Source of the DNA: Candidatus Latescibacterota bacterium
GTDB lineage: Bacteria; Latescibacterota; UBA2968; UBA8231
Direction: 5' to 3'
Assembly (NCBI GenBank): GCA_965215195.1
Contig: CBDCDC010000002.1
Span: 4,160,001 to 4,224,000 of the forward strand
Length of the DNA stretch: 64,000 bases
The notes under the pieces are model-generated. The model was not told the origin of the DNA, made no database searches, and saw nothing but the letters and a program-made list of their open reading frames with translations. Positions 10,342 through 61,242 of the stretch are shown here, piece by piece. Numbering within the stretch: the stretch's first letter is position 1; every line of letters begins with the position of its first letter. Made by a program: the position numbers and the translations under genes.

Positions 10342-10423
10342 TTATTCAACAGAATGATTGACAACGAAATTGTTGAAAAACATAGAACTCAACAATCTCG
10401 TTGTCAACCGATTTGTTGAATAA
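10342..10423. promoter_or_regulatory. Long AT-rich imperfect palindrome upstream of the ATPase pair (putative operator/promoter)
   Basis: TTATTCAACAgaatgaTTGACAACGAAATTGTTGA-n12-TCAACAATCTCGTTGTCAAccgattTGTTGAATAA. Contains TTGACA on both strands. Confidence 0.7.
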
Positions 10424-10484
10424 ATCGCAAGGCGGTACATCTTGCCTATCCGTGAGATGCAGTTTTCCGGGTCGGTTGGTGAGC

Positions 10485-22770: not shown

Positions 22771-22790
22771 GAGATTAGCCTTTCCAACAG

Positions 22791-23729: not shown

Positions 23730-23928
23730 CAGTTGGTCCTTCAATTGAAGTTTGATTAAGCTTGACTCTCTGTTTTTCCCAACGTTGTGCGTCTGGTCGT
23801 GATCGGTAAACGGCCAAGGAGGTGTTCTGTGTACCAACGCGTCATTGAAGATAACAACGAAACCAGCCCCGTTACAATTTGTCGAACGCAATCCATTCCA
23901 TCCTCTCTGTGGACAAAACATGGGTAAT

Positions 23929-45796: not shown

Positions 45797-47635
45797 ATGC
45801 CGAAAGTTAGAATGTTCACAGTGGCCGCTTGGTTGGGCATCTGCGTCGCCGGCCATGCCGCTGCGGAGGAAGGGGCGTGGGAGGTGGTGGAGAAAATTCT
45901 CATGAGTACCAAGGATATCGTCGTACTCGACGGCACCGAAAAGGTGCCGCTGCGCTACGAGGGGGGAGCAGAGCCGACCCACGGCGACTGGATGGTGCGC
46001 CACATGCTGTCCGATCCCGAAAAACTCAATCCGTACACCTCCAGCGATGCCGGTGCCAGCCGGGTGCTAGAGCTTATCTTTGAGAGCCTACTCGACACCG
46101 AGCATGAGCCGCCGTACAACCTGCGGGGTTGGGTGGCTGTCGGATATCCAGAGGTTGCGGCGGACAAACTCGCGTACACGTTTGAGTTGCGCGACGGGGT
46201 TTACTTCTCAGACGGCAAGCCGCTGACGGCCGCGGATGTCGTCTTCAGCATGAAGGTCATCCACAACCCCCAAGTGCTAGCGCCGCATCTGCGCAACTAC
46301 TATGCTACCGTCCGAGACGTGCAGATCGTGGAGGCCAATAAGGTCCGCTTCCTTTGCCGCGAGCCTTATTTCCGCAATGACCTGATCTTGGGCGGCTTCT
46401 CCATTCTGCCCAAGCATTTCTACGACCCGGAGGGGCTGATGGAGCCGGTCGAGCTCAAGAGCTTGGTGGATGGCTCTTGGGAGGAGGGGCCTCACAAGGA
46501 ACGGGTTGAGCGCTTTGCCGAACAGTTCAACCAAAATTTCAATCGCACGGCGCTTGGCTCGGGGCCGTACCGGATCGCAGATCCAGAGCGCGATTTGGTC
46601 ACCCAGCAGAAAGTCGTGCTGACGCGGAATGCAAACTACTGGGGTCGGGACGTGGAAGGGCTGCTGCCGCCCGGCTTTGTCGATAAGATCGTCTTTAACA
46701 TCATCAACAATACCGACGCGGCATTCATCGAGTTGACCAACGGCAACCTCGATTACTACGCTCTGCGCCCGTTGCAATTTAAGGAAAAGAGCTGGTCGGA
46801 AGACTTCAATCGCCGCTTCCTCAAAGGCGTCAGCTACTCCAGCGGCTATATGTACATAGGGTGGAACAACAACCATCCGATCTTCGGCGACAAGCGGGTG
46901 CGCCAAGCCATGACCTATTTGACCGACCGCGAGGGCATGGTAGAGAACTTCATGTTCGGCTTGGCCGAGACGGTAGAGGGGCCGATTAACAAGTTTCGCC
47001 CGGAGTACAACCACGACCTCGCGCCGTACCCCTACGATCCCGACCGCGCCCTCGACCTGCTCGCGGAGGCTGGCTGGGAGGACGCCGATGAGGACGGCAT
47101 TCTCGACAAGACCATCGACGGAGAGTTGGTGCCATTTCGCTTTGAGATCTTGGTCAACTCGGGCAACCAGATCCGCAAAGACATCGCCCTGACGGTCCAA
47201 TACGAGCTGCAAGATATCGGCATTGACTGCCAAGTGCGCGAGCTAGACTGGTCGATTTTCCTGCAAAAGGTCAAGAGCAAAGCTTTCGACGCCATGGTGT
47301 TGGGCTGGACCGGCAGCCTGCGCGTCGCACCCGACAGCTACCAGATCTGGCATTCTTCCCAGACCGTAGAGAACGGCTCCAACCACGTGAGCTTTATCAA
47401 CGACGAAGTTGACAACATCTTGGAGACCTATCGCCGCGAGTTCGACATGGACAAGCGCATTGAGCTCTACCGCCGCTTTCAGGAGATCCTGTACGCGGAA
47501 CAGCCGTACACCTTCATGTGGAAATCGCGCTCGCCCCAAGCCTATAGCCGGCGCTTCAGTGGCGTCACTTGGTATCCCCCCGGCGTCCGCTTGCAGGACT
47601 GGTGGGTTGCGCGGGAAGAGCAGATGTACCAATAG
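45797..47635 (+). CDS. Peptide/nickel ABC transporter substrate-binding protein (family 5, OppA-like)
   Basis: DPEKLNP, FELRDGVYFSDGKPLTAADVVFS, GSGPY, F.DKRVRQAM. Confidence 0.9.
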   Translation: MPKVRMFTVAAWLGICVAGHAAAEEGAWEVVEKILMSTKDIVVLDGTEKVPLRYEGGAEPTHGDWMVRHMLSDPEKLNPYTSSDAGASRVLELIFESLLDTEHEPPYNLRGWVAVGYPEVAADKLAYTFELRDGVYFSDGKPLTAADVVFSMKVIHNPQVLAPHLRNYYATVRDVQIVEANKVRFLCREPYFRNDLILGGFSILPKHFYDPEGLMEPVELKSLVDGSWEEGPHKERVERFAEQFNQNFNRTALGSGPYRIADPERDLVTQQKVVLTRNANYWGRDVEGLLPPGFVDKIVFNIINNTDAAFIELTNGNLDYYALRPLQFKEKSWSEDFNRRFLKGVSYSSGYMYIGWNNNHPIFGDKRVRQAMTYLTDREGMVENFMFGLAETVEGPINKFRPEYNHDLAPYPYDPDRALDLLAEAGWEDADEDGILDKTIDGELVPFRFEILVNSGNQIRKDIALTVQYELQDIGIDCQVRELDWSIFLQKVKSKAFDAMVLGWTGSLRVAPDSYQIWHSSQTVENGSNHVSFINDEVDNILETYRREFDMDKRIELYRRFQEILYAEQPYTFMWKSRSPQAYSRRFSGVTWYPPGVRLQDWWVAREEQMYQ

Positions 47636-47644
47636 GGCGCGTCC

Positions 47645-48061
47645 GTGTCCTCCGCAGACGCCCTCCGCTGGGAGAGCCACCCCCTGCGCCGGGAGAAGCC
47701 GGCCAAGTCCATGCTACTGGTCGCGCTCATCGTCGCTTCCGCAGCGGCTGCGGCCTTTGGCTTTGAGCATTGGTTTTACGGGGTGTTTTCACTCGGAGCA
47801 TTGACCGTCTCGCTGTCGCGCTATTTCTTCCCTACGCGCTACGCGCTCAACGGCGAGGGGGTCCGCAGCGAACACCTCGGCCTTAAACAGCGCCGTTCTT
47901 GGGCGGAATTCCGTCGAGTAGAAGAGCATCGGGACGGCATTTTTTTACGTCCGTCCGTCCGCCCAAGTCGGCTGGATTCCTTTCGCGGCGTTTTTTTGCG
48001 CTGCGATCAAAACCGCACAGAGGTTGCGCGTTTCGTCCGGTGCCATGTTCCGAGTCAATAG
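47645..48061 (+). CDS. Small membrane protein, 2 TM + PH-like domain
   Basis: W.SHP, two TM helices, FFPTRY, W.EFRR, LD.FRG. Confidence 0.65.
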   Translation: MSSADALRWESHPLRREKPAKSMLLVALIVASAAAAAFGFEHWFYGVFSLGALTVSLSRYFFPTRYALNGEGVRSEHLGLKQRRSWAEFRRVEEHRDGIFLRPSVRPSRLDSFRGVFLRCDQNRTEVARFVRCHVPSQ

Positions 48062-48380
48062 CTTAAAAGCGCGGTGGCGGCACGCTTTTGCCCTTGAAGA
48101 TCCAGCGGCGGGTTGGTCTGAAGACGAGCGTGCGCTGGCCGAGCGGCTGGCCGAGTTTATAGTGCGCCGCCGCATGGGAGCGGCCGCGTCCATGGCGTTG
48201 GAGGCTTGCCGCCCTCTCAACTTTTTGGGCAGCCAAGCCCTGACCTTTTTGGCCCCGTTTGCCACGCTGGTTTTTTCGCGCGACGAGTACCAGCGCTTTA
48301 CGCGCATGTTGGAGCGACGCCAGTGCATAGATTTGCTCGCCGAGGCCATTGCCCGGCGCGAAAGCCAAAAGCATGGATGA
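48045..48380 (+). CDS. Conserved small hypothetical protein
   Basis: LE..RPLNFLGSQ.L.F..PF. Overlaps both neighbours. Confidence 0.65.
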   Translation: MFRVNSLKARWRHAFALEDPAAGWSEDERALAERLAEFIVRRRMGAAASMALEACRPLNFLGSQALTFLAPFATLVFSRDEYQRFTRMLERRQCIDLLAEAIARRESQKHG

Positions 48381-50154
48381 CCTCAACGTAGTTATCGCCA
48401 CGGACTGCGGCAGTACGACGACCAAGGCGATCCTGATCGAAAAGAAGGACGAAGGGTATCGCCAGACCTTTCGCGGCGAGGCCCCCACTACGGTGGAGGC
48501 CCCCTTTGAGGACGTCACCCGGGGGGTGCTCAACGCCATTCAAGAGGTTGAGGAGCTTTCCGGGCGGCAAATTCTCGCTGGCGAGCAGATCATCACTCCG
48601 GCAGACGGCGCTGTCGGGGTCGATATGTACATCTCCACGAGCAGTGCCGGCGGCGGGTTGCAGATGGTAGTGGCCGGCGTGGTCTTGGCGATGACTGGCG
48701 AGAGCGCACAGCGCTGCGCCTTGGGGGCCGGGGCAATTGTCATGGACGCGCTCGCTGCCAACGATGGGCGCTTGCCGCACGAGAAAATAGAGCGCATCCG
48801 CCAACTGCGCCCCGATATGGTGTTGCTGTCGGGCGGCACCGATGGCGGCACCGTCAGCCACGTGGTCGAGCTGGCCGAATTCATCAGCGCGGCCGATCCC
48901 AAGCCCCGCTTTGGCGCGGGCTTCAAGTTGCCGGTTATTTTTGCGGGCAATCAGAGCGCGTGCGAGGCGGTCAAAAAGGCGTTGGGAGGGAAGATGGCCC
49001 TGACCGTCGCCGAGAATATCCGCCCAGTGCTCGAAGAGGAAAACTTGGACCCGGCGCGGCGCGTCATTCACGACCTCTTCCTCGAACACGTCATGGCGCA
49101 GGCACCTGGCTACCGCAAGCTGATGGGCTGGACCGGTGCGCCGATTATGCCGACGCCCGGGGCAGTGGGCGAGATCATGCAGACTATTGCCCGCCAGCAG
49201 GAGCTCAATGTCGTTGGCGTGGATATCGGCGGGGCGACGACCGATGTATTCAGCGTCTTCGATGGCGCGTTCAACCGCACGGTCAGTGCCAATTTAGGCA
49301 TGTCCTATAGCGTCTCCAACGTGCTGGCCGAGGCCGGGCTCGACCGCATCATGCGCTGGGTTCCTTTTGACATTGAGGAAGCCGACCTCCGCGACCGGAT
49401 CAAAAACAAGATGATCCGCCCGACGACCATCCCGCAGCTCATGCAGGAACTGCAAGTTGAGCAAGCCATTGCCCGCGAGGCCCTGCGCCTGGCCTTTGAG
49501 CAACACCGGGCGTTGGCAGTGGGATTGAAGGGGGTGCAGAGCAAGCGCACGCTGGCCGATGTGTTTGAGCAGGGTGCCACCGGCGAGAGTTTAGTCGAGA
49601 TGATGGCGCTGGACATGCTGGTCGGCAGCGGCGGCGTACTCTCGCACGCGCCCCGCCGCGAGCAGAGTTGCGCCATGCTCATAGATGCCTTCCAGCCCGA
49701 AGGCGTCACTCGCTTGGCGGTCGATAGCATCTTTATGATGCCCCACTTGGGGGTGCTCTCGACCGTTGACGAGCGGGCCGCGACCGAGGTTTTTGAGCGC
49801 GATTGCCTGATCTACTTGGGCACTTGTGTAGCTCCCGTCGGCGAGGGTAAGGACGGCGAGGTTTGCCTCCAGTACGAGATAGAACTGCCCAGCGGGCGTC
49901 AAACTGGCCAAGTACAGGTCGGCCAGCTACAGTGGATGCCCTTGGCCGATGGCGAGGAGGTCGAAGTCTCACTCCAGCCGGCGCGGCGTTGGGATGTGGG
50001 TGCTGGTCCGGGGCAAGCCCTAAACGCGCGGGTGCGCGGCGGGGTTGTAGGGCTAGTGCTGGACGGTCGCGGGCGGCCCATCCAGATGGCGACAGACCGC
50101 GATCGCCAGCGGCAGATAAGCGACTGGCAGCGGGCGTTAAACCTATACGAGTAG
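48373..50154 (+). CDS. GlmL/MutL-like (glutamate mutase L family) ASKHA-fold ATPase with C-terminal extension
   Basis: DCGSTTTKA, APTTVE, SSAGGGL, GGTDGG, PTP, VDIGGATTDVFS, GSGG, LDGRGRP. Confidence 0.85.
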   Translation: MDDLNVVIATDCGSTTTKAILIEKKDEGYRQTFRGEAPTTVEAPFEDVTRGVLNAIQEVEELSGRQILAGEQIITPADGAVGVDMYISTSSAGGGLQMVVAGVVLAMTGESAQRCALGAGAIVMDALAANDGRLPHEKIERIRQLRPDMVLLSGGTDGGTVSHVVELAEFISAADPKPRFGAGFKLPVIFAGNQSACEAVKKALGGKMALTVAENIRPVLEEENLDPARRVIHDLFLEHVMAQAPGYRKLMGWTGAPIMPTPGAVGEIMQTIARQQELNVVGVDIGGATTDVFSVFDGAFNRTVSANLGMSYSVSNVLAEAGLDRIMRWVPFDIEEADLRDRIKNKMIRPTTIPQLMQELQVEQAIAREALRLAFEQHRALAVGLKGVQSKRTLADVFEQGATGESLVEMMALDMLVGSGGVLSHAPRREQSCAMLIDAFQPEGVTRLAVDSIFMMPHLGVLSTVDERAATEVFERDCLIYLGTCVAPVGEGKDGEVCLQYEIELPSGRQTGQVQVGQLQWMPLADGEEVEVSLQPARRWDVGAGPGQALNARVRGGVVGLVLDGRGRPIQMATDRDRQRQISDWQRALNLYE

Positions 50155-50157
50155 CTC

Positions 50158-51273
50158 ATGGCCCACGCCTATACCCCTGGACTGCGCGTGACGCAACACG
50201 CAGTCGTCCACAAAGAGCGGCGTTTGCCCCTCAAAGGCGAAGTTGTCGTCGAGCGCGGCCAAGCGGTGCGGCGAAACCAAGTCGTGGCCCGCACCGAACT
50301 GCCGGGCGAGGTGGCAATCCTCAACTTGGTAAACCGCTTGGGCATCTCGCCGCAAGAGTTATCCGGCTATATGCTCAAAAAAGAGGGCGACCGCGTCGAA
50401 GCCGGCGAGCCGCTCGCCGAGACCAAGCCCTTTATTCGGTGGTTCAAGACCACGGTCGAAGCCCCGGTCAGCGGCACGGTCGAGAGCATTTCGCCGGTTA
50501 CCGGGCAGGTGATGCTGCGCCAAGCCCCTAAGCCGGTCGAAGTGCTCGCTTACGTCGATGGGGTCGTCGAGGAAGTTTTTGCCGCGGAGGGCGTGCGCGT
50601 CGCAGCGCAAGGTGCGTATATCCAGGGCATTTTCGGCGTGGGGGGCGAGTGCTGGGGTGCGCTGCACTTGGCGGTTGCAGCCCCGGACGCCATTGCCGGG
50701 CCGCTGGGCCCGGAAGTGGCGGGCAAAATCGCGGTGGTCGGTAGCCTGATTAGCGCGGAGACCGTGGAACAGGCCCGGCAGGCCGGGGCCGTGGGGTTGA
50801 TCGGCGGCGGCCTGCGCGACCGCGACTTGCGCGACCTGCTCGGCCGCGATTTGGGCGTGGCCATCACCGGGACCGAGCAAATCGGCCTGACCGTGGTAGC
50901 TACCGAGGGCTTCGGCCGCGTCGCCATGGCCCGCAAGACCTTCGACATTCTGCGCGCCTGCGCCGGCATGGATGCGTCCATGGCCGGCGCGACCCAGATC
51001 CGCGCTGGCGTATTGCGGCCGGAGATCATCGTTCCCACAGCCGCTGACAAAGAGGAAGAAGAGGTGCGGCCGAGTGCGGGCGGGTTGCAGGTGGGCGATT
51101 TGTTGCGGGTGATTCGGATGCCCTATTTTGGGCGCATTGGGCGCGTCAGCGACTTGCCGACCGAATTGTGCGCGGTGGAATCTGGGGCGCGGGTGCGGGT
51201 CTTGGCCGTGGAGTTTGAAGACGGGGAGCAGGCGGTAGTGCCGCGGGCAAATGTGGAGCTGATTGAGGAATAA
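50158..51273 (+). CDS. Conserved protein with barrel-sandwich hybrid (lipoyl/RnfC-N-like) repeats and C-terminal KOW-like domain
   Basis: KKEGDRVEAGEPLA..APVSGTV, QGIFGVGGE, TEGFG, TQIRAGV.RPE, GD..RVIR.PYFGRIG. Confidence 0.7.
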   Translation: MAHAYTPGLRVTQHAVVHKERRLPLKGEVVVERGQAVRRNQVVARTELPGEVAILNLVNRLGISPQELSGYMLKKEGDRVEAGEPLAETKPFIRWFKTTVEAPVSGTVESISPVTGQVMLRQAPKPVEVLAYVDGVVEEVFAAEGVRVAAQGAYIQGIFGVGGECWGALHLAVAAPDAIAGPLGPEVAGKIAVVGSLISAETVEQARQAGAVGLIGGGLRDRDLRDLLGRDLGVAITGTEQIGLTVVATEGFGRVAMARKTFDILRACAGMDASMAGATQIRAGVLRPEIIVPTAADKEEEEVRPSAGGLQVGDLLRVIRMPYFGRIGRVSDLPTELCAVESGARVRVLAVEFEDGEQAVVPRANVELIEE

Positions 51274-51277
51274 AGGT

Positions 51278-52522
51278 ATGAGAGCAAAAAGCTGGCTGGC
51301 TGCATTCGTCTTGGCTTGGCCGTTGGCGAGCGCGGCGGAGAATGCGGAACAGGGGCTTGGCGCGTTGCTGGCACCCCCTAGGCCGCCGATTGAGGTGCAA
51401 GCCTTTGACACGCCCAATGACGACGGGGGCAGCATTACGCTGACTTGGCCGCGAGATCGTCAGATCAGTGAAAATGCGATGTATCAGGTCGCCATTGCCG
51501 ACTCGCCCAGCGGGCCTTTTCGCGTCGCGGCCGAGGTTGCGGCAACGGAGAATTTGATGTCCGAGGCACCGGCCCTCTTTGGGCACGGGGATGATCTGGA
51601 GAATCACCACTATGTCAACGTTGAGGAATTCGCCGGCGCGAGCGGCAAGGTGCCGTTAGAAGACGGCAAGACGTATTACTTTCACGTGGATGTGCGGTCG
51701 GCCGGGGGCGCGATCCGCGGCAAGGTGATCGTCAACGCCGAGTCGGCCGGCAATTTTTTTAATCGCGCCAAGACCAACAATCTGATGTTGTGCCTCGTGT
51801 TTTCAGGGCTAATCATGGGCTACATTGGCATCGCACGGCGGCGCGCGCTCAAAATTCGCCGCATCGCCGGACTAGAGGCGCTCGACGAGGCGCTGGGGCG
51901 GGCGACCGAGATGGGCAAGCCGGTGCTCTTCATCCACGGCCTGCGCGGCATGGACTCGATATCGACTATTGCCGCGGTCAATATCTTGGGCCGGGTCGCG
52001 CGGCGCACGGCCGAGTACGAGACCGCGCTGCGGGTGGTGGCCCCAGACCCGGTGGTCATGTCCGTGAGTCAGGAGACGATGAAGGCATCTTATGTGGAGG
52101 CCGGCCGGCCCCACGACTTCAACCCGGAGCACGTGTTCGTCGCTAGTACCGATCAGTTCAGCTATGCGGCGGCGGTTGAAGGCATCATGGTGCGCGAGCG
52201 GCCGGCGGCTCACATTATGATGGGGTACTTCTACGCTGAGTCCCTGCTGTTGGCCGAGACGGGTTCGACGACCGGGGCGATCCAGATCGCCGGTACGGAC
52301 GCCTTCACCCAACTGCCTTTTTTTATTACGACTTGCGATTATACCCTACTCGGCGAAGAGCTGTACGCGGCCAGTGCCTATCTGTCGGGTGAGCCGCGAA
52401 TGCTGGGCACGCTCAAGGGCCAGGACATGAGCAAGGCCATTATTTTGATCGTTTTGGTGGTGGGCACGATCTTAGCGACATTGGGGATGCCGCAATTCGC
52501 ACACGTGTTCGCCCCGTACTGA
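51278..52522 (+). CDS. Exported FN3-like domain + TM + DUF6754-like domain
   Basis: Signal peptide, DTPNDDG.SI.L.W, TM, IRRIAGL.A.DEA.GRATEMG, QLPFF, L.GEELYAASAYL. Confidence 0.75.
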   Translation: MRAKSWLAAFVLAWPLASAAENAEQGLGALLAPPRPPIEVQAFDTPNDDGGSITLTWPRDRQISENAMYQVAIADSPSGPFRVAAEVAATENLMSEAPALFGHGDDLENHHYVNVEEFAGASGKVPLEDGKTYYFHVDVRSAGGAIRGKVIVNAESAGNFFNRAKTNNLMLCLVFSGLIMGYIGIARRRALKIRRIAGLEALDEALGRATEMGKPVLFIHGLRGMDSISTIAAVNILGRVARRTAEYETALRVVAPDPVVMSVSQETMKASYVEAGRPHDFNPEHVFVASTDQFSYAAAVEGIMVRERPAAHIMMGYFYAESLLLAETGSTTGAIQIAGTDAFTQLPFFITTCDYTLLGEELYAASAYLSGEPRMLGTLKGQDMSKAIILIVLVVGTILATLGMPQFAHVFAPY

Positions 52523-52531
52523 GGAGATGCC

Positions 52532-53188
52532 ATGTTGTTTTTCAGCCGCACCCTACCACTGGCTGTCGCCTTTGTCTTTGGTTTGCTGGGCATTGCCATT
52601 TACTACATACCGCACAGCTATGCCCAGAGCTTTGAGCGGGAGATGTCGCTGTGGGTGCGGATCATTTTTGCTTTTTCCTACCTCCTCGGGCTGTACAGCT
52701 TACTCAACCTGCACTGGCAGCGCATCCGCCAGCAGGTCGCCGGCTGGGGGTATAGCTTCGTGGCGATTGTCAGCTTTGCGGTGATGATGGTCTTCGTGGC
52801 GTACAACGACGGGGCCGGTCCGTTTGCTCCGCAAGCCGGAGCCGGGGCCTACAAGTGGATGTTCGACTACATTCACTTCCCCTGCGCCGCCACCATGTTC
52901 TCGATCTTGGCCTTCTTCATTGCGTCGGCGGCCTACCGGACCTTCCGCGCCCGTACGCCCGAAGCCGCCTTGTTGCTCGTCGCCGCCGTGATCGTCATGT
53001 TGGGCCGGGTGCCCATTGGCCGGGAGATCTCCGAGTATTTTCCGCTGGTGAGCGAGTGGCTGATGAGCGTACCGAATTTAGCAGCCAAGCGCGGCATCCT
53101 GCTTGGGGTATCCCTAGGGGCCATTGCAACCTCGCTGCGGATCATCTTCGGTATTGAGCGTTCGTACTTGGGAGGGGGAGACAAGTGA
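52532..53188 (+). CDS. Multi-pass membrane protein of the GlmL cluster
   Basis: Several TM segments, TMFSILAFFIASAAYRTFRAR, R.I.GIER. Confidence 0.75.
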   Translation: MLFFSRTLPLAVAFVFGLLGIAIYYIPHSYAQSFEREMSLWVRIIFAFSYLLGLYSLLNLHWQRIRQQVAGWGYSFVAIVSFAVMMVFVAYNDGAGPFAPQAGAGAYKWMFDYIHFPCAATMFSILAFFIASAAYRTFRARTPEAALLLVAAVIVMLGRVPIGREISEYFPLVSEWLMSVPNLAAKRGILLGVSLGAIATSLRIIFGIERSYLGGGDK

Positions 53189-54003
53189 TGCAGATAGATC
53201 GCCGCATCCTCTTCGCCTTGATGTTTCTCGGAGTGGCCGTGCCGCTCTTGGTGGGGCTAGACCTGCCGATCACGCCGTCCAAGCGGGTGAGAGCGGCTTA
53301 CGACCGGATTGAGCAACTTGCCGCCGGGCAGGTCGTCTTAGTCTCCTTCTCCTACGGCGCCAGTACAGCTCCTGAGATGCAGCCCATGGCGCGGGCGATT
53401 TTGCGCCACGCCTTCCGCCGCGACCTCAAGGTGGTTGCCATTTGCCTGTGGCCGGAAGCGACCGGCTTGGCCCAGGAGGTGCTCGACGAGATGGCGGCTG
53501 AATTCGACTTGGAGTACGGGGTGGATTACACCTTTATGGGCTACAAGCCGGGCAATTTTAGCGTCATTCTCAATATGGGGCACGACATGCACGGCACCTT
53601 TCCACAGGACAATTGGGGCGCCGGTGTTGGCACTTTGGAATTGATGCGGAATTTGCGCTCGCTGAGGGATTTCGATCTCGTCTTTGACTTGGGGGCCGGA
53701 GATTCGATTGAGTTTTGGTGGATTCCCTACGGGCAGGAGAAATACGGCTTTCCCTTTGCCGCCGGCTGCACCGCGGTGATGGCCCCGGATCTCTACCCCT
53801 TCCTCGGCTCGGGCCAACTCGTGGGTCTGCTCGGGGGCTTGGCCGGTGCAGCCGACTACGAGGTCCTGATTGATCACCGCGATGAGGCGAACAAGAGCAT
53901 GTCTCCCCAGTCGGTGACGCACTTGATCATTGTCGTCTTCGTGATTTTTGGCAATATCGCCTACTTCGTCGGTCGGCGGGGCCGATCGCAGCAGGAGAGC
54001 TAA
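53188..54003 (+). CDS. Membrane-anchored alpha/beta protein of the GlmL cluster
   Basis: DRRI.F + TM, E..PM, YG.DY...GY.PG, GQL.GLLGGL.GAA.YE, C-terminal TM. Confidence 0.75.
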   Translation: MQIDRRILFALMFLGVAVPLLVGLDLPITPSKRVRAAYDRIEQLAAGQVVLVSFSYGASTAPEMQPMARAILRHAFRRDLKVVAICLWPEATGLAQEVLDEMAAEFDLEYGVDYTFMGYKPGNFSVILNMGHDMHGTFPQDNWGAGVGTLELMRNLRSLRDFDLVFDLGAGDSIEFWWIPYGQEKYGFPFAAGCTAVMAPDLYPFLGSGQLVGLLGGLAGAADYEVLIDHRDEANKSMSPQSVTHLIIVVFVIFGNIAYFVGRRGRSQQES

Positions 54004-54006
54004 GCC

Positions 54007-54720
54007 GTGCGCGATACCTATATCTTTCTGGGTTTGCTCCTGCTGTTTGCGGCCGTCAACATCGGCTTAGTGGCCAGCGGCACCTTGGCGGCGGATTGGA
54101 CGGGTTTCGGCGTCATCGTCGCCGCGGGAATGACCTTGGCGCTCTACAGCTTCCTCTACAAGGACAACCCGCTCTTCAAATTTGCCGAGCACGTCTTCGT
54201 CGGCGTGGCAGCGGCCTACGTATTCGGCCAGTACTGGTATCCGACGCTTTACGGCGAGCTCATCGCCGAATGGACCGATCCGGGGGAAGGGGAGTCGCCC
54301 GATTGGTGGCTGTTGGCCCCGACGGCGCTCGGGCTTTTGATGTTGACGCGCTTTTCGCTGCGCTTTGGTTGGCTCAGCCGCTATGCTTTTGCATTTTTCG
54401 TGGGGTTGAGTGCCGGCCTGACGATTCCCCGCTATATTTCTTCTTTTATTTTGGCCCAAGTTGAACCTACATTACAACCACTAACTGGGAGCTGGGAGGG
54501 ACTCAATTTGCTGATCGTCCTAGTGGGGGTCGTCGGGGTGTTGGTTTATTTCTTCTTTTCCGTTGAGCACACTGGCGCGGCCGGCCACATCTCCAAGGTG
54601 GGGATATGGTTTTTGATGGTCTCGTTTGGGGCTTCGTTTGGTTACACTATTATGGCGAGGGTCTCGCTGTTGATCGGGCGCGCGACCTTTCTCTTAGAAG
54701 ATTGGCTGCACCTGATGTAG
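54007..54720 (+). CDS. Multi-pass membrane protein of the GlmL cluster
   Basis: YSFLYKDNPLFKFAEH.FVG, YFFFS.EH, LM..FGASFGYT.M.R.SLLIGR. Confidence 0.75.
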   Translation: MRDTYIFLGLLLLFAAVNIGLVASGTLAADWTGFGVIVAAGMTLALYSFLYKDNPLFKFAEHVFVGVAAAYVFGQYWYPTLYGELIAEWTDPGEGESPDWWLLAPTALGLLMLTRFSLRFGWLSRYAFAFFVGLSAGLTIPRYISSFILAQVEPTLQPLTGSWEGLNLLIVLVGVVGVLVYFFFSVEHTGAAGHISKVGIWFLMVSFGASFGYTIMARVSLLIGRATFLLEDWLHLM

Positions 54721-54754: not shown

Positions 54755-57700
54755 ATGACCAAGTTTGCAGGCGTTTTTCGCGCCCTGATTGCACTTGGCG
54801 TCTTGCTCGCGCTGAGCTTGGCTCCGGCCGAGGCCAGCACCGGCGGCAAGATCGCCGGTGTAGTAAAGGATGCCACCACCGGGGATGGGCTGCCCCATGC
54901 CAATGTCGTGGTGGTGGATGCCAAGCTGGGGACCACGGCGGACGAAAGGGGCCGCTTTTTTATTCTCAACGTGCCGGCGGGCACCTACACCCTCAAGGTC
55001 ACGTATATCGGCTACGCGGATTATACGGTCGAGGATGTGCGGGTTTCCGCCGACCTGACCACGAATCTCGACATCGACCTGACTTCTTCGGATATCCAAG
55101 TCGAGGAGGTGATAATTCGCGCCGAGCGGCCTATTATCGACAAGACCGCCACGAATGCGGTGCGCATTGTCGGGGCCGAGGACATAGAGATTCTGCCGTT
55201 CAGAGGCGTTGGCCAAGTCTTGTCCCTGCAGGCTGGCGTGGTCGAAGACGAGGGTGCGCTGCACATCCGCGGCTCGCGCAGCGACGAAATTGGCTATTAC
55301 GTTGATGGGGCCAGCGTCCGCAACATAATCACCGGCAGCAGTGCTGTGGCCCTGATCGACGAAGCCCTAGAGGAAATTCAGCTACAGGCCGGCGGCTTCA
55401 ACGCCGAGTACGGCGGGGCCAACGCCGGCATCGTCTTGCAGGAACTGCGCACCGGAGGCAGCGATTGGGACTTCAAGGTCGTCGCCGAGTCGGACAATTT
55501 CACTTCCGACTTTGAGGAGCGCTTCGGCTCGTACTCATACGGCTATTCCAACCAAGTGGTCACGGCCGGCGGCCCGGTCGCGGGCAACCAAAATATCCGC
55601 GCCTTTCTCGCCGGTCAGCGGTTGAGCCGGGACTACCGACCGACCTTCTGGTCGGGGTTTGAGTTCGAGGATCTGGTCGATACGGGCAACCGCCAAGGCC
55701 GCGTACATTGGGAAAAGGACGAGGAGGGCAATCCCATCCCAGACGCGGTCGAGCGGCTGGAAGTGAAACCGGGCAATATCCCGCACACCGGCAGCGAGTT
55801 CCTCGGCTTTAACAGCACCCTGCACTTCAACTACAATCCCATCCAGTTCCGGGTCACGGGCCTGCACTCCACCGGGGACCGCGATCTCAACATCAATCCC
55901 ATCAAAAACATCCTCAATCAAGAACGCCTCAACGAGCAGACGTACTCTTCGAGCTTGGTCAACGTAAAGGCCATCCACTTGCTCGACCCGAGCCTGTTCT
56001 ACGAAATGAACGTCAGCTTCTACGGTCAGGGGCGCGAGAGTTTCGACGGGGTGTTCAAAGAGCGTTGGTGGGTTTACAACGACAGCGTGGCCGTCCAGCG
56101 CGCCTTGGAAGGCGGCCTGGAGTACACCCCTTATACGGCCAACGGATCGATACCCGAGCCTTACGACCTGAGCGGGTTTCCGTTCAACCGCCCGGGGTCG
56201 CCTACCAATTCTGCGTCCGGGAACAGCACGGGCGCTTGGTACGCCAAGGAAGAGGATCGCTATTGGGGCTTGGCCGGCAGCATTACCAAGCAGACCGCGG
56301 TCCATCAACTCAAGGCCGGCTTTGACTACCAGATGTGGACGTCGCGCCGCTACGCCATCTTCAACGGATCCATTCGCTCGCGTATCGCAGCGACATATCC
56401 CAAGCTAGACGAAGTGTATCAGCGGTACTACAGCGACGCGCTCAACGAGGGCGAAATTCTCGACGAGCTGATCGAGACTGCCAAGGGCCTGCCCGATGAC
56501 GAAGGTAGCCTCGAGGACCTCAAGAAGTCCCTACGCCTCAGTTCTGGCGACTTCTATGGCTACGACGAATTCGGCCGCTCCATCGACTCGTCGGACGACC
56601 CGCTGCAAGACCCGCGCAAGCCCGTGGTCGGCTCGGCCTACGTCCAAGACAAGATCGAATACAACGATCTGATCATCAACGCCGGGCTGCGCTTGGATTA
56701 CTTTGATGCGGCGAGTTGGCGCTTTGTCGATCAATCGGCGCCGAAGATAGACAAAGACGCACGCACCATAGTAATCGCAGACACGACCGGCACGTACATG
56801 GAGAAGACGCCTACATACGCGGAGATCAGCCCGCGCTTGGGCTTTTCGTTCCCGGTGTCGGACCTGACGGTCTTCCACGTGCAGTACGGGCGCTTCTCGC
56901 AGATGCCGCGGATGCGCGATATGTTCACCGGCGGTGCGCGGCTGGCCATCGAGTTGGGTGGGCAAAACTTCATTCCCACGCCCACGGCCTTTGACGTCGA
57001 GCCGGTGCGCACGACCCAATACGAGATCGGCTTTGAGCGTCAGTTCGCCGATTTTGCCTCGTTTGACGTGACGAGTTTTTACCGCGACATCAAGGGCCAG
57101 CTCCAGATCAGGCGTCAAGATGTGTCGGCCGGGAACGCCGGTTCGTTTACGTACTTGCAGAACGGCGATTTCGCCACGACCAAGGGCATTGAGTTCCAGT
57201 TCAAGGTGCGGCGGTTCAACCGCTTGCAGGCCGAGTTGAACTACACGCTGTCCGACGCACGCGGCACGGGTTCGACCCTGATATCGGCGCAGTCGGGCGT
57301 GGAGAACGACACCACCGTGCCGACGATCATCTCCCCGCTCGACTTCAACCAGACGCACCGCGGCTCTTTGTTCTTGGACTACCGCTTTGCCGACAACGAG
57401 GCGAACCCGCTTCTCCGCAGCTTGGGGGCCAACCTGTTAGCGCGCTTTGCCAGCGGCTACAGCTTCACGCTGGTGGAGGGTTCCATCGGCCAGCGCGGGC
57501 CGGAAGAAGGCGGCATCCTCGCCAGCGACGACCCGCGCTCGCGCAAGCCGGTTGAGTCCATCAATCGCTCTTCGACGCCCTGGACTTTTCAGACGGACTT
57601 GCGGATTGACAAGGGCTTTTCGCTCATGGGGGTCAATGCCCAGATTTACACGTACGTGCAGAACCTGTTCAACCGCCAGAACGTAATTAACGTGTACGGC

Positions 57701-57904
57701 CGGACCGGCAACGACAAGGACGACGGCTTTTTGACGAACCCGGACTTGAGCCAGCAGATCGTCGAGGCCAGCGGCGGTTGGGAGTACCAGCAGCTCTACG
57801 AGGCGATCAACTTGCTCAACCGCCAGCACTACTGGTCCACCGAGGGCGGCGACATCTACGACTCACCGCGGCAGATCCGCTTCGGGCTACAATTCGACTT
57901 CTAG
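54755..57904 (+). CDS. TonB-dependent outer-membrane receptor with N-terminal carboxypeptidase-regulatory-like domain
   Basis: GKIAGVVKD, HIRGSR, GGFNAEYG, YVQDKIE, GLRLDYFD, SPRLGFSFP, terminal PRQIRFGLQFDF. Confidence 0.92.
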   Translation: MTKFAGVFRALIALGVLLALSLAPAEASTGGKIAGVVKDATTGDGLPHANVVVVDAKLGTTADERGRFFILNVPAGTYTLKVTYIGYADYTVEDVRVSADLTTNLDIDLTSSDIQVEEVIIRAERPIIDKTATNAVRIVGAEDIEILPFRGVGQVLSLQAGVVEDEGALHIRGSRSDEIGYYVDGASVRNIITGSSAVALIDEALEEIQLQAGGFNAEYGGANAGIVLQELRTGGSDWDFKVVAESDNFTSDFEERFGSYSYGYSNQVVTAGGPVAGNQNIRAFLAGQRLSRDYRPTFWSGFEFEDLVDTGNRQGRVHWEKDEEGNPIPDAVERLEVKPGNIPHTGSEFLGFNSTLHFNYNPIQFRVTGLHSTGDRDLNINPIKNILNQERLNEQTYSSSLVNVKAIHLLDPSLFYEMNVSFYGQGRESFDGVFKERWWVYNDSVAVQRALEGGLEYTPYTANGSIPEPYDLSGFPFNRPGSPTNSASGNSTGAWYAKEEDRYWGLAGSITKQTAVHQLKAGFDYQMWTSRRYAIFNGSIRSRIAATYPKLDEVYQRYYSDALNEGEILDELIETAKGLPDDEGSLEDLKKSLRLSSGDFYGYDEFGRSIDSSDDPLQDPRKPVVGSAYVQDKIEYNDLIINAGLRLDYFDAASWRFVDQSAPKIDKDARTIVIADTTGTYMEKTPTYAEISPRLGFSFPVSDLTVFHVQYGRFSQMPRMRDMFTGGARLAIELGGQNFIPTPTAFDVEPVRTTQYEIGFERQFADFASFDVTSFYRDIKGQLQIRRQDVSAGNAGSFTYLQNGDFATTKGIEFQFKVRRFNRLQAELNYTLSDARGTGSTLISAQSGVENDTTVPTIISPLDFNQTHRGSLFLDYRFADNEANPLLRSLGANLLARFASGYSFTLVEGSIGQRGPEEGGILASDDPRSRKPVESINRSSTPWTFQTDLRIDKGFSLMGVNAQIYTYVQNLFNRQNVINVYGRTGNDKDDGFLTNPDLSQQIVEASGGWEYQQLYEAINLLNRQHYWSTEGGDIYDSPRQIRFGLQFDF

Positions 57905-57929
57905 CCGCTTAAAAGCGAGGAAGCACACC

Positions 57930-60900: not shown

Positions 60901-61220
60901 GCGTCAAAAAGATCAACGTCTTTCCCAATCCCTACCTCGGCGTCAATTCGGCCGAGACCAGCCGCTACAACCACTTCGTGACCTTCAGCCACCTGCCGCC
61001 CAAGGCGAATATCCGCATCTTCGACATGAGCGGCACGCTGGTGCGCACCATTGAGAAAGACGATCCGGCGCAATTTATGCGCTGGGATCTGCAAAACCAC
61101 AACGAACTGCCGGTGGCCAGCGGCATGTACATCGCCCATATCGAGTTGCCGGAAACCGGCATGAGTCGGATTCTCAAGCTGGCCGTCATCCAAGAGCAGC
61201 AGTTTTTGGAAAACTTCTAG
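57930..61220 (+). CDS. Large exported protein with FN3-like region and C-terminal T9SS/FlgD-like sorting domain
   Basis: Signal peptide, WSDPDLG, DFLQGP, FEGYNVY, YYF.VTAY. C-terminus INVFPNPY...IRIF...G.LVR...WDL.N....VASGMY. Confidence 0.82.
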   Translation: MRKLIFGYIAAAGLAIGPAEAREPFYGRAAKSLQEEAVEISTDRTMLNINNMAMWILSDGESAHNPISGSAGVTFPRSTDQVIFQDGLIWGGRVIDGNPQELRVGGQTYAVGTVPGVIESRGVAQDRDTARLYRIRRDYATADLRLDASEILNKRLSEVTDADEEAVRTQYERDWMEWPAELGAPFYDNDGNGQYDPAVDEPGLANADQVIWLAINDLDPGAVASLYGSLPIGMETQVTLWGYARTDALGDAIFKKYKVIYKGTESTPDTARIEDMYLAQWSDPDLGDFGDDFAGADVDLSLGYVYNSIDDDSHYVNFELAPPAAGYDFLQGPVVPVYLLDEEGNVAVDEEGNSLLDESSVAIFNDGMRPGYKNLPMTAFVYFAAGSSISDPDLNEYDGTLQWYNLLQGFQPQADIENPVPYTNPLTNEDTKFTLDGDPTRATGWNDGIPLPAGDRRIVMATGPFEMALGDTQEVVVALLGASSTDRLRSVSKLKFTDQFVQDAYNSFFQVPKPPVRPNVRLIELDQTIVLNWGWDPESVSKTEGVGSPGFDFEGYNVYQLPSAEATLSQGTRVATFDLVNGVTTILGIALDEQSGVVLDVPLQIGNDSGLQRYIALSHDALRGGPLVNGQQYYFTVTAYNRATSEDAATTTTLESSPQTITCVPQIAPPGITRTHEDPGDTLSVEHTKGIGDASVWPLVIDPTALQQATYKVTFNDDATWSLSRDGERIVDRESNISLDESYPIVEGLQVKVGDLVFTHPTTYIRSKVTNDANLDDGPLSLWGDGTLFGFADGYGSTFWDGGGAGDNRLVRDIEFRFTGVWNADSTAIAEGGSIATLGGVSAGSGERDIAAHPFKPAEVSDSTGAFLQRVPFEVWDVEDPDNPRQLNAVFYDRGADGSRDEGSVVYHQTYNMPGRDYITIVHTDYDPTKIHELTDENTTWVYFFTQGGSSVWSTGDVLRITIGNTVVAGEDEFEFKVTAETYSEALAKESVKKINVFPNPYLGVNSAETSRYNHFVTFSHLPPKANIRIFDMSGTLVRTIEKDDPAQFMRWDLQNHNELPVASGMYIAHIELPETGMSRILKLAVIQEQQFLENF

Positions 61221-61242
61221 GGGAGAAACAGGAGGCCATTCC

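Follow-up and report, generated by a model that had tools for sequence, protein, structure and literature searches.

Several described systems in which one energizing unit is common to several membrane units are known, including ECF transporters (common EcfAA'T) and mycobacterial Mce systems (common MceG ATPase). NqrA and RnfC each sit at the periphery of a membrane complex, and EutA is grouped with the diol/glycerol dehydratase reactivases. MutL/GlmL is described as a chaperone that reactivates glutamate mutase (PMC4682846). In glycerol dehydratase reactivase, the alpha subunit combines an Hsp70-like ATPase domain with a swivelling domain that lets go of the Rossmann-like beta subunit when ATP is hydrolyzed (PMC7674605).

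Here, we analyze an eight-gene cluster that encodes a relative of MutL/GlmL and lies in a 64,000-nucleotide stretch of Candidatus Latescibacterota DNA (the window). Tentatively, we favor a reading in which interchangeable membrane units, probably serving transport, are driven by an ATPase unit resembling a reactivase. No mention of DUF6754, PF20539, or PF13941 was found in the papers searched, and this conserved combination of an actin/Hsp70-fold ATPase with a membrane complex has apparently never been studied.

Two modules in an eight-gene cluster

The cluster (positions 47645-54720; Table 1) was found in the ORF listing to be tightly packed: at each of the seven junctions, the genes either overlap or are separated by no more than 9 nt, in agreement with an earlier, sequence-only reading. 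Given the synteny elsewhere, this clustering is far beyond chance. The genes form two modules, soluble g1 to g4 and the membrane quartet g5 to g8. The g3 ORF opens at 48349, but the ATG at 48373 is the likely start because the g2 stop in relatives sits just before the matching Met; here, the g2 stop overlaps the g3 start. The likely start of g5 is the ATG at 51278, since close orthologues measure 414 to 415 aa. Hydropathy assigned one transmembrane (TM) segment to g1, two plus a signal-like N terminus to g5, six to g6, two to g7, at least three to g8, and none to g2, g3, or g4. Five of the eight proteins (g1, g2, g6, g7, and g8) have no Pfam family match.

Table 1. Genes of the cluster, with positions in the window
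Gene	Position	Strand	Product
g1	47645-48061	+	138 aa; 1 TM helix (residues 22-40), then ~98-aa C-terminal domain
g2	48024 (TTG) or 48045 (ATG) to 48380	+	Small soluble protein, ~100-118 aa
g3	48373-50154	+	593 aa; ASKHA-fold ATPase, Pfam family MutL/GlmL
g4	50158-51273	+	371 aa; three-domain ATPase partner
g5	51263 (TTG) or 51278 (ATG) to 52522	+	FN3-TM-DUF6754 protein
g6	52532-53188	+	218 aa; polytopic, 6 predicted TM helices; second quartet gene
g7	53185-54003	+	272 aa; TM helix, ~217-aa soluble domain, second TM helix
g8	54007-54720	+	237 aa; polytopic membrane protein, at least 3 TM; last quartet gene

The g3 protein matches the Pfam MutL family (PF13941) with 423.9 bits over residues 15 to 486 (profile positions 1 to 450) and extends about 110 aa beyond the family domain at its C terminus. 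Scores against the NCBIfam models were all below the cutoffs (GlmL, 229.7 versus 475; Or-4, 212.2 versus 600; TIGR01319, 157.7 versus 204.05). The motifs ATDCGSTTTKA, GVDIGGATTD, and GSGGxLSHAPRR, which we take to be the ASKHA phosphate-1, phosphate-2, and adenosine motifs, respectively, are conserved across 42 orthologues; the sequence-only reading had likewise noted them as intact. Conservation reaches at least 95% at 244 of 601 positions in the 42 sequences, and identity between phyla is 64 to 79%. The gene is single copy in the genome.

Given its strong PF13941 match, and given that fused relatives (see below) bear the name "glutamate mutase L" in their sources, g3 could be taken for the ordinary GlmL of a B12-dependent mutase that happens to lie beside unrelated membrane genes. 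That candidate was rejected as contradicted, and we regard it as extremely improbable: neither GlmE (PF06368) nor MM_CoA_mutase was found anywhere in the 6.13-Mb genome (95.2% complete), g3 falls under all curated GlmL and Or-4 cutoffs, and it tracks DUF6754 across two phyla (see below). The two B12-binding domains in the genome both lie more than 700 kb from the cluster. The ATPase had been described as lacking a glutamate mutase within the window, a statement that, for GlmE, now extends to the genome.

The g4 protein consists of a conserved N-terminal tail (MAHxYTPGL), a barrel-sandwich hybrid domain, a swivelling beta/beta/alpha domain (about residues 152 to 294), and a KOW/SH3-like barrel (residues 309 to 371). 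Weak Pfam matches to RnfC_N, Biotin_lipoyl, and NQRA_N coincide at residues 68 to 116. By VIA-align, the AF2 model (pLDDT, 85.6) matched NqrA (4u9o; Z 7.8, rmsd 2.0, 64 aligned, 27% identity), 8ahx (Z 7.5, rmsd 2.9, 65 aligned, 26% identity), PTS enzyme I (2wqd; Z 9.2, rmsd 2.7, 106 aligned), RraA (3c8o; Z 8.5, rmsd 3.0, 123 aligned), and a KOW domain (5ohq; Z 9.0, rmsd 1.4, 52 aligned). The sequence-only reading had seen barrel-sandwich hybrid repeats in g4; the domain is present, but only once, and is followed by the swivelling and KOW/SH3-like domains.

In other lineages, g3 and g4 are fused in single chains of about 1000 aa. PF13941 is carried by 41 of 42 long g4 relatives, and two fusions, P0309 (a cluster of 223 members) and P0311, join an intact g3 C terminus through a linker of about 25 residues to g4 minus its Met. 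Source records name such fused relatives "glutamate mutase L." Together, g3 and g4 appear to be one functional unit, in some lineages one chain.

We propose that g1 and g2 are small accessory proteins of the soluble module. For g1, no Pfam or NCBIfam family was found; with an HMM built from orthologues, it was located immediately before g2 in 19 of the 79 loci described below and also in L103, L106, and L107. The g2 protein carries the conserved motif P.NF.GSQ.L.F..P and matched no family. Present in 41 of 79 loci, it adjoins g3 in 39 (median gap, 14 nt), while in L048 and L053 it stands directly before g5 without g3 or g4.

Synteny, spread, and co-occurrence

Gene order within the quartet is the same in 77 of 79 loci, which come from more than 15 named lineages (g5 in 79, g6 in 76, g7 in 72, and g8 in 68). 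In 76 of the 79, g6 lies downstream of g5 with a median gap of 16 nt, and 9 of the 11 g8 misses are at contig ends. Two WOR-3 loci (L051 and L088) have a solitary g5; every other miss is at a contig end. Titles of the loci name Latescibacterota, Gemmatimonadota, anammox Brocadiaceae/Scalindua, Phycisphaerae, Planctomycetaceae, Nitrospira, Methylomirabilis, Ignavibacteria, Zixiibacteriota, WOR-3, Eisenbacteria, Poribacteria, Sumerlaeota, Myxococcales, and others. The soluble genes g2, g3, and g4 stand next to the quartet in 41, 41, and 40 of the 79 loci, respectively. The synteny extends well beyond this genome, for the quartet in 77 loci and for the adjacent ATPase module in 41. All 5 genomes checked in which the first-found quartet is unlinked to the ATPase encode a full-length g3 orthologue elsewhere (64 to 67% identity), and in 3 of them g1, g2, and g4 lie beside the remote g3.

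Counts of co-occurrence take in related, nonindependent genomes and overstate the number of independent events, but DUF6754 and g3 agreed in 162 of 168 Latescibacterota genomes (139 with both, 23 with neither, and 6 discordant, all at most 90% complete) and in 61 of 61 Nitrospirota genomes (minimum-completeness setting, 90), where the same 8 have both and 53 have neither. As a rule, g3 is accompanied by g4 and DUF6754 membrane quartets. The machine is very strongly conserved and is spread over many mostly uncultured bacterial phyla. Five genomes contained 6, 1, 6, 5, and 6 DUF6754 genes and one orthologous g3 each, and two or three quartets stand in tandem in at least 11 of the 79 loci.

The surroundings of the cluster bear on a different reading, in which it is a lineage-specific accessory of a peptide-uptake locus that energizes or gates an Opp-type ABC importer or a TonB-dependent-like receptor. 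An OppA-like SBP_bac_5 gene (45797-47635) lies upstream, an OppB-like permease gene runs from 63392 onward, and a gene for a Plug-domain outer-membrane protein directly follows g8. Locus L024 has a full oppABC set between g3 and g4, with oppDF after g8; genes for Opp-type ATPases are neighbors of the cluster in L024, L025, L027, L028, and L075, as are peptidase genes in L045, L063, and L092. However, the Opp genes and the receptor are kept in close relatives only: by tblastn, 7 of the 79 loci had the SBP, 6 had the receptor, and 5 had the T9SS protein, and loci from Nitrospira, anammox bacteria, Planctomycetota, and WOR-3 have other neighbors. Opp also has ATPases of its own. We consider an accessory role of this kind very unlikely.

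The membrane quartet and its predicted contact with the ATPase

The g5 protein matches DUF6754 (PF20539) with 370.3 bits at residues 163 to 415. It begins with a signal peptide and an FN3 ectodomain (about residues 26 to 172), followed by the DUF6754 part, which consists of a TM helix, a cytoplasmic Rossmann-like domain of about 200 aa, and another TM helix. The AF2 model (pLDDT, 87.1) contains the FN3 ectodomain (e.g., 4n68; Z 10.3, rmsd 2.6, 96 aligned), in keeping with the FN3-TM-DUF6754 order initially assigned. The Rossmann-like domain gave generic fold matches, none prominent: PGK (2cun; Z 10.6, rmsd 3.3, 146 aligned), LpxB (5w8x; Z 10.2, rmsd 3.1, 128 aligned), a sirtuin (3u31; Z 10.2, rmsd 3.8, 144 aligned), and MT0777 (1kjn; Z 9.7, rmsd 3.6, 135 aligned). 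The orthologue alignment shows an invariant Cys358-Asp359 pair and several invariant acidic residues but no invariant His.

No Pfam family or PDB relative was found by profile for g6 (15 diverse orthologues), g7 (12 orthologues), or g8 (13 orthologues), nor any known transporter fold or motif in their sequences. No homology between g7 and g5 was detectable (hhalign probability, 0.4); judging from charge distribution only, the soluble domain of g7 probably faces the periplasm. Median identity is 61 to 62% for the g5 cytoplasmic domain, both between loci and between paralogues, compared with 43 to 46% for g6 and g8, 39 to 41% for the g7 domain, and 25 to 33% for the g5 ectodomain. This gradient fits a common cytoplasmic docking site with diverging outer parts. 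Among the ectodomains of 40 long g5 relatives, 8 are BamB-like PQQ_2 propellers, 1 is FN3, and the others are without a family match.

Complex prediction of g3 with g5 residues 192 to 391 scored 0.67, 0.69, and 0.66 in three runs, while the best of three controls scored 0.00. Among solved complexes, 116 of 157 reach the mark used, as do 2 of 215 mismatched pairs. These counts apply only roughly because our own alignments were used; those for g3 and g5 were shallow (35 and 30 rows). At least 82% of contacts agreed between runs, with partner pLDDT of at least 78. Sequence searches gave no solved relative for either protein, so a pass through memorized structures is unlikely. On g5, the ATPase is predicted to touch the C-terminal edge of the beta-sheet together with the most conserved loops. 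Of the 24 interface residues of g5, 15 are invariant or conserved to at least 90%, among them the GRATEMG and PFFxxxCDY stretches, compared with 71 of 200 across the domain. Thus, g3 appears to dock on the cytoplasmic Rossmann-like domain of g5, and the model supports binding. With the predicted interface added to the absence of a mutase and the synteny, the original proposal that the ATPase serves a multisubunit inner-membrane complex rather than a B12 mutase is supported.

In our preferred reading, the eight genes would encode one two-module envelope machine. The products of g5 to g8 would form a four-subunit inner-membrane unit, in which the periplasmic ectodomain of g5 varies, whereas its cytoplasmic domain, held between two helices, is very conserved. 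ATP binding and hydrolysis may change how the docked ATPase unit grips that domain, much as B12-enzyme reactivases with the ASKHA fold use a swivelling domain to grip a Rossmann-like subunit and let it go. Movement would then pass through the flanking g5 helices to g6 to g8 and the periplasmic parts, most likely in order to move a substrate over the inner membrane, with one ATPase unit serving one to several diverged membrane units. Both the reactivase-like mechanics and transport as the output are inferred. Of transport, secretion, and assembly, transport is our tentative choice of machine type; the data on the cluster indicate no substrate. The genes flanking the cluster are heterogeneous between loci, which counts against this reading, as do the solitary g5 of the two WOR-3 loci, the generic fold matches of the g5 domain, and the lack of a recognized transporter fold or motif in g6 to g8.

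The same contact could have another meaning. Rossmann-type domains usually bind ligands at the C-terminal edge of the beta-sheet, where the predicted contact and the most conserved loops lie. The g5 domain might hold a cofactor (such as a corrinoid or a nucleotide) that g3/g4, as a true reactivase, would load or exchange, making the quartet a membrane enzyme. The family of g3, with named members regarded as reactivators of B12 mutases, the swivelling domain of g4, as in dehydratase reactivases, and the invariant Cys358-Asp359 and acidic residues of g5 are compatible with such a role. It is nevertheless unlikely in our judgment. The lack of an invariant His in g5 speaks against the His-on cobalamin motif (DxHxxG), the window has no cobalamin riboswitch or other Rfam element, and no cofactor-binding family was detected in any subunit. 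Diversity of substrates, more than a single enzyme, would account for variable ectodomains and as many as six diverged quartets beside one ATPase.

A signalling, tethering, or envelope-organizing complex, whose ectodomains (FN3 and beta-propellers) bind envelope partners and whose ATPase is a nucleotide-dependent switch or scaffold instead of a transport motor, seems more doubtful still. The ectodomains with assigned families are protein-interaction modules, the ASKHA proteins FtsA, MreB, and PilM serve as membrane-associated scaffolds, and conservation as high as that of g3 is also typical of many-partner proteins. Yet the subunits yielded no signalling output domain, no FtsA, MreB, or PilM Pfam match was reported for g3, and the conservation of all its ATP-site motifs suggests real turnover. 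Moreover, a tether would not need two polytopic subunits with conserved polar and charged residues.

Comparison with known systems

With GlmL/MutL, the accessory of coenzyme-B12 glutamate (methylaspartate) mutase, and with Or-4 (PF13941; NF040745, NF040744, and TIGR01319), g3 shares an end-to-end match to the Pfam family and the ASKHA nucleotide motifs. It differs in falling below all three NCBIfam cutoffs, in its added C-terminal extension, and in its company, g4 and DUF6754 quartets in a genome without the mutase. The N-terminal barrel-sandwich hybrid domain of g4 resembles that of NqrA/RnfC from the Na+-NQR and Rnf complexes (RnfC_N, Pfam E value of 1e-06). Only this one small domain is shared, however, and the cluster showed no families of Rnf/Nqr membrane subunits and no flavin or Fe-S sites.

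Pfam gave no sequence-family match to the dehydratase reactivases, which are also absent among the best 50 structural matches of g4. Fold class and domain content are thus the basis of the analogy to them. In the diol/glycerol dehydratase reactivase (alpha2beta2; e.g., PDB 1NBW as cited in PMC7674605), the ATPase would correspond to g3, the swivelling domain to the middle domain of g4, and the gripped and released Rossmann-like partner to the cytoplasmic domain of g5. The g3-g4 fusions recreate the one-chain layout of the reactivase. The client here differs in being a membrane protein with no sign of cobalamin, and g4 has additional barrel-sandwich and KOW-like domains.

In contrast to ECF and Mce systems, the ATPase has the ASKHA rather than the P-loop ABC fold, the membrane subunits match no ABC, ECF, or Mce family, and transport itself is a proposal. 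The likeness to these systems lies in the organization: one ATPase gene per one to six diverged membrane units in a genome, and a conserved cytoplasmic docking surface combined with variable outer parts.

Gene content of the cluster and identity of its ATPase

All eight genes of the cluster (g1 to g8) lie on the + strand, and adjacent genes throughout either overlap or lie ≤9 nt apart, in agreement with the tight coupling described in the sequence-only reading. The genome that carries them comprises 6.13 Mb in two contigs. The start of g3, the MutL/GlmL-family ATPase gene, was most likely the ATG listed in the table, because the in-frame TGA of relatives is the g2 stop codon, which directly precedes their matching Met. 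Selenocysteine in g3 was rejected on the same grounds: the single in-frame TGA found in many relatives is the g2 stop, and the query N-terminus was over-extended. The most likely g5 start agrees with close orthologues of 414 to 415 aa.

Only three of the eight proteins were named by Pfam: g3 as MutL (PF13941; 423.9 bits versus a gathering score of 27, profile positions 1 to 450), g5 as DUF6754 (PF20539; 370.3 bits), and g4, the partner of g3, through weak matches to RnfC_N, Biotin_lipoyl, and NQRA_N. No matched stretch of the Biotin_lipoyl hit passes the E-value limit alone. Neither the small accessory proteins g1 and g2 nor the membrane proteins g6, g7, and g8 matched a Pfam family, and the same was true of their orthologues from other phyla (n = 50, within a scan of 56 diverse orthologues in all). 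The PADLOC-DB defence models retrieved none of the eight proteins at E values up to 0.01 (0 families), PDB sequence searches with g3 and with profiles of g4 to g8 gave nothing significant, and an Rfam scan of the window found no riboswitch or other RNA element and hence no cobalamin riboswitch. Hydropathy indicates soluble proteins for g2 to g4, a single transmembrane (TM) helix for g1, six for g6, and a polytopic protein for g8. In g5, a signal-like N-terminus leads into an ectodomain, after which two TM helices enclose ∼200 cytoplasmic residues. The two TM helices of g7 enclose ∼217 residues. An internal duplication of the g5-to-g8 membrane module (hereafter the quartet), with g5 resembling g7 and g6 resembling g8, was rejected, as hhalign probabilities were ≤2.6 for all 28 pairs of the eight families and no homology was detected.

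The assignment of g3 as an ASKHA ATPase with intact motifs held up: PF13941 was matched over its full length, and 244 of 601 positions are ≥95% conserved in 42 orthologues from many phyla, including all nucleotide-binding motifs. Proteins from other phyla are 64 to 79% identical to that of the window. MutL/GlmL is described (PMC4682846) as a chaperone that reactivates glutamate mutase. None of the corresponding NCBIfam cutoffs was reached by g3, which scored 229.7 bits against the GlmL equivalog NF040745 (cutoff, 475), 212.2 bits against Or-4 (cutoff, 600), and 157.7 bits against TIGR01319 (cutoff, 204.05). The lack of a glutamate mutase, first noticed in the window, extends to the genome as a whole (95.2% complete), in which GlmE (PF06368) was unmatched; MM_CoA_mutase (PF01642) likewise had no match. 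This genome has one PF13941 gene and two B12-binding domains, each >700 kb from the cluster.

Coordinates of the cluster, its neighbors, and features of two compared loci
Feature	Sequence	Position	Strand	Length (aa)	Remarks
Low-GC patch	window	21865–23921	−		two ORFs
oppA	window	45797–47635			upstream of g1
g1 to g8	window	47645–54720	+		eight-gene cluster
g3 start	window	48373	+		ATG, most likely
g5 start	window	51278	+		ATG, most likely
Three genes directly after g8	window	54755–62277			next three rows
CarboxypepD_reg + Plug outer-membrane protein	window	first gene after g8		1049	SusC/RagA-like N-terminus
Protein with T9SS C-terminal sorting domain	window	second gene after g8		1096	
PorV-like protein	window	third gene after g8			
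oppB	window	63392–64000			after the outer-membrane genes
LplA/B ligase gene	L024	922–1797			near ATPase module
oppABC	L024	4401–8690			between g1–g3 and g4–g8
oppDF	L024	13511–15560			after g4–g8
Second ATPase-partner pair	L108 (G171:C28)	∼7676–10512	−		diverged

Conservation, flanking genes, and co-occurrence

For comparison, one genome per species was scanned with the two most conserved g5 peptides; at least 628 stretches matched, of which 627 could be confirmed. The 79 loci retained for analysis are all titled as MAGs. The genes proved to be syntenic elsewhere, as HMMs placed g5, g6, g7, and g8 in 79, 76, 72, and 68 of these loci, respectively. HMMs built from the window proteins found g1, g2, g3, and g4 in 19, 41, 41, and 40 loci. 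Contig ends coincide with one of the three misses for g6, five of seven for g7, and nine of 11 for g8, with two WOR-3 loci (L051 and L088) making up the rest. In these two loci the DUF6754 gene is solitary, with >1.4 kb downstream that lacks recognizable g6 to g8. With families sorted by ORF start, the order g5-g6-g7-g8 is kept in 77/79 loci, a count that takes in truncated loci at contig ends as well as L051 and L088. Exceptions are L040 and the second copy in L039, where the apparent rearrangement is explained, certainly for the former and probably for the latter, by an over-extended ORF. Median intergenic gaps inside the quartet are 16, 30, and 26 nt.

Clustering of 1190 ORFs from the 79 loci yielded no further family in more than 25 loci. 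The one cluster of 25 loci was judged to consist of antisense shadow ORFs, its representative overlapping g5 to g7 of L067 on the opposite strand. Flanking proteins were heterogeneous by Pfam scan (n = 81). The SBP_bac_5 gene flanking the window cluster recurs in 7/79 loci, the Plug-domain outer-membrane protein gene in 6/79, and the gene for the T9SS-tailed protein in 5/79, in each case in close kin only. These flanking genes lie outside the system. The three genes that follow g8 in the window look like an outer-membrane uptake set common to close relatives only. Opp-type peptide importer genes are interspersed with the cluster in two arrangements in this phylum: around g1 to g8 in the window, and both inside and after the cluster in L024, where a gene for a 1242-aa PD40/Peptidase_MA protein follows oppDF. 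Peptidase genes are neighbors at several other loci. Together, the Opp and peptidase neighbors give a weak, lineage-bound hint of peptide use.

Two further features of the surroundings are recorded here. A Memo-like (PF01875) gene follows g8 in eight Nitrospira-lineage loci (L052, L058, L059, L068, L071, L073, L083, and L090), as a lineage-specific companion. Elsewhere in the window, a low-GC patch (0.44 versus ∼0.6 around it) contains ORFs of 301 and 376 aa, neither of which matches a Pfam family; it adjoins genes for a DUF433/HTH protein and an M48-PDZ peptidase and is possibly acquired DNA.

The ATPase and DUF6754 also occur together at the level of whole genomes. Among 168 genomes of this phylum, DUF6754 was found in 143 and g3 in 141, with both present in 139, neither in 23, and six discordant, counts in which related genomes are not independent. 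All six discordant genomes (G127, G002, G128, G063, G025, and G028) are ≤90% complete. Both genes are missing from all 13 genomes of family f10. In Nitrospirota (n = 61; minimum-completeness setting, 90), where relatedness again limits independence, the same eight genomes carry both genes, a few kilobases apart, and the other 53 carry neither. Joint loss and joint presence of g3 and DUF6754 hold in both phyla.

Within loci, the quartet stands alone in 21 of 79 and is present in tandem, two- or threefold, in at least 11. In five genomes whose first-found quartet had no neighboring ATPase gene, a full-length g3 orthologue (64 to 67% identity) was located elsewhere in every case (5/5). Its surroundings are a second complete g1-to-g8 cluster in two genomes and g1, g2, and g4 in one; in the remaining two it is accompanied by g2 only or is alone. 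These genomes carry 6, 1, 6, 5, and 6 DUF6754 genes and one orthologous g3 each, and one of them has an additional, 44%-identical g3 paralogue. We note that L108 holds a second, diverged ATPase-partner pair, in which a g4-like ORF overlaps the end of a 44%-identical g3-like gene; no quartet was seen in the 11.6 kb of sequence covered.

Domain folds, fusions, and the predicted g3-g5 contact

The three-domain model of g4 (pLDDT 85.6) contains the barrel-sandwich hybrid fold that had been read from the sequence, as a single domain and not as repeats. This N-terminal domain resembles NqrA (4u9o; Z 7.8, rmsd 2.0, 64 aligned) and RnfC (8ahx; Z 7.5, rmsd 2.9, 65 aligned). The middle domain (∼152 to 294) has the swivelling beta/beta/alpha fold, with matches to PTS enzyme I (2wqd; Z 9.2, rmsd 2.7, 106 aligned), rifampin phosphotransferase (5hv1; Z 8.8, rmsd 3.3, 112 aligned), RraA (3c8o; Z 8.5, rmsd 3.0, 123 aligned), the pyruvate kinase extra domain (2e28; Z 7.8, rmsd 3.2, 109 aligned), and aconitase X (7cnr; Z 7.6, rmsd 3.0, 106 aligned). 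A C-terminal KOW/SH3-like barrel matches 5ohq (Z 9.0, rmsd 1.4, 52 aligned) and also PsaE, NdhS, and PetP (Z 7.7 to 8.1). Because these Z values are middling, we name fold classes and not relatives.

Mean column identity of g4 is 58%. A phosphohistidine carrier was considered and rejected, since residues 152 to 294 hold no invariant His and PF00391 gave no match; a near-invariant His occurs only in the N-terminal tail (His3). A biotinyl or lipoyl carrier was rejected because Lys90 (AETKPF) is <75% conserved in 41 sequences. Separately, lipoate-related genes recur beside the ATPase module among the 81 flanking proteins scanned with Pfam: a glycine-cleavage P protein gene upstream of g1/g2 in L043, L060, and L078, a lipoyl synthase gene in two loci (L068 and L084), and an LplA/B ligase gene in L024. 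The hybrid domain of g4 is lipoyl-like but lacks a conserved lysine.

A search for longer relatives of g4 retrieved 42 proteins, of which 41 also match PF13941 and most measure 989 to 1022 aa. In P0309 (representing a cluster of 223 members) and P0311, an intact g3 C-terminus is followed by a linker of ∼25 residues and by g4 without its initiator Met. These clean fusions indicate that g3 and g4 form one functional unit. An apparent g3-g4 fusion, P0272, was left uncounted; its linker looks out of frame and the g4 Met is retained, giving it the look of a frameshift or gene-call artefact. The apparent g4-g5 fusion P0271 (1/42 long matches) ends in the middle of DUF6754 and is probably an artefact of the same kind.

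The description of g5 as an FN3-TM-DUF6754 protein agrees with its model (pLDDT 87.1), in which the ectodomain matches FN3 structures at Z 9.4 to 10.3 (e.g., 4n68; Z 10.3, rmsd 2.6, 96 aligned). The cytoplasmic domain is a three-layer alpha/beta (Rossmann-like) fold whose matches by Foldseek and VIA-align are generic and rank about equally: 2cun (Z 10.6, rmsd 3.3, 146 aligned), 5w8x (Z 10.2, rmsd 3.1, 128 aligned), 3u31 (Z 10.2, rmsd 3.8, 144 aligned), and 1kjn (Z 9.7, rmsd 3.6, 135 aligned). DUF6754 is a large family, with at least 7951 proteins at E ≤0.001 in a 90%-identity collection (7951/8000 candidates scored) and 2259 matches among 50%-identity representatives. The domain is always C-terminal, and the ectodomains preceding it differ widely in length; among 40 long forms, eight have BamB-like PQQ_2 propellers, one has fn3, and the remainder are unmatched. 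Median identity falls from the g5 cytoplasmic domain (61 to 62%) through g6 and g8 (43 to 46%) and the g7 domain (39 to 41%) to the g5 ectodomain (25 to 33%). This gradient is the same for paralogous quartets and for orthologues of other phyla, and the two sets have diverged equally.

The sequence-only reading had the ATPase serve a membrane complex, and an interface was indeed predicted. Using the window's own proteins and self-made alignments, g3 (593 aa) and g5 residues 192 to 391 scored 0.67, 0.69, and 0.66, versus 0.00 for the best of three controls, on a scale whose mark, reached by 116/157 solved complexes and 2/215 mismatched pairs, holds roughly here. The runs agree in ≥82% of contacts, with partner pLDDT ≥78, and sequence searches of the PDB gave no solved relative for either protein. 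On g5, the predicted contact comprises residues 202 to 219, 251 to 253, 335 to 340, and 355 to 361 and takes in GRATEMG and PFFxxxCDY, the best-conserved stretches of the family; invariance or ≥90% conservation applies to 15/24 interface residues, versus 71/200 in the domain. On g3 (593-aa numbering) it involves residues 103 to 108, 129 to 130, 154 to 163 (the invariant GGTDGG...H loop), 217, 220, and 386 to 403. The docking model supports, but does not demonstrate, binding of g3 to g5.

Proposed mechanism and comparison with known systems

Metatranscriptome contigs from two studies, derived from near relatives (90 to 95% identity), cover g1 to g5, g7, and g8 and bridge the SBP-g1-g2-g3, g3-g4, and g4-g5 junctions; stretches without such cover carry no meaning. 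This cover is compatible with expression of the cluster and does not prove a single transcript. No paper naming DUF6754, PF20539, or PF13941 was found in the literature searched, to which the system is new.

In glycerol dehydratase reactivase (PMC7674605), the alpha subunit contains both an Hsp70-like ATPase domain and a swivelling domain, and the Rossmann-like beta subunit leaves this swivelling domain upon ATP hydrolysis. Three corresponding elements are present here: g3 is the ASKHA ATPase, g4 contributes the swivelling domain (some lineages have g4 fused to g3), and the g5 cytoplasmic domain would be the Rossmann-like client. Given this shared set, we propose that nucleotide-driven grip and release of the g5 domain would move the membrane unit. 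The output would most likely be transport of a periplasmic substrate, which we infer from the variability of the outer parts, the presence of two polytopic subunits, and the one-to-many relation between ATPase and quartets. Cofactor handling, signalling, or tethering is a possible output instead.

Taken together, with transport as the preferred output, the cluster may represent a primary active membrane machine of a new class, with an actin/Hsp70-fold (ASKHA) motor instead of a P-loop, P-type, or rotary ATPase, a proposal that we regard as tentative and rather doubtful. The g3-g4 unit (with g1/g2) would plug into interchangeable quartets via the DUF6754 cytoplasmic domain, each quartet serving another periplasmic substrate, and the whole would be a modular transport system of ancient origin, spread over many non-model bacterial phyla. 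If the ATPase does drive membrane units, a reactivase-like grip of an ASKHA motor on a Rossmann-like domain would be a new energy-coupling principle, and the widespread mis-annotation "glutamate mutase L" would be corrected. The question is open to direct testing, given the predicted g3-g5 interface, the naturally occurring g3-g4 fusions, and the one-to-many ratio. The cluster is among the most conserved gene sets of no known function, and its carriers are of environmental weight: nitrite-oxidizing Nitrospira, anammox bacteria, Methylomirabilis, Planctomycetota, and many candidate phyla.

Neither in g1 to g8 nor in the 56 diverse orthologues did an ABC_tran, ABC membrane, or ECF family pass its cutoff. 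The resemblance to RnfC and NqrA is confined to the N-terminal hybrid domain of g4; TIGR01945 scored 14.9 (cutoff, 245.95), and none of the Rnf or Na+-NQR families was found in g5 to g8. From GlmL (NF040745), g3 is set apart by its score below the equivalog cutoff and by a genome without the GlmE partner. No Pfam sequence-family match links the cluster to the alpha subunit of B12-dehydratase reactivases (DdrA/GdrA type), and no reactivase chain is among the 50 best fold matches of g4. The likeness to the dehydratase reactivase lies in domain content, with the difference that the putative client here would be held between two membrane helices as part of a four-subunit membrane complex.
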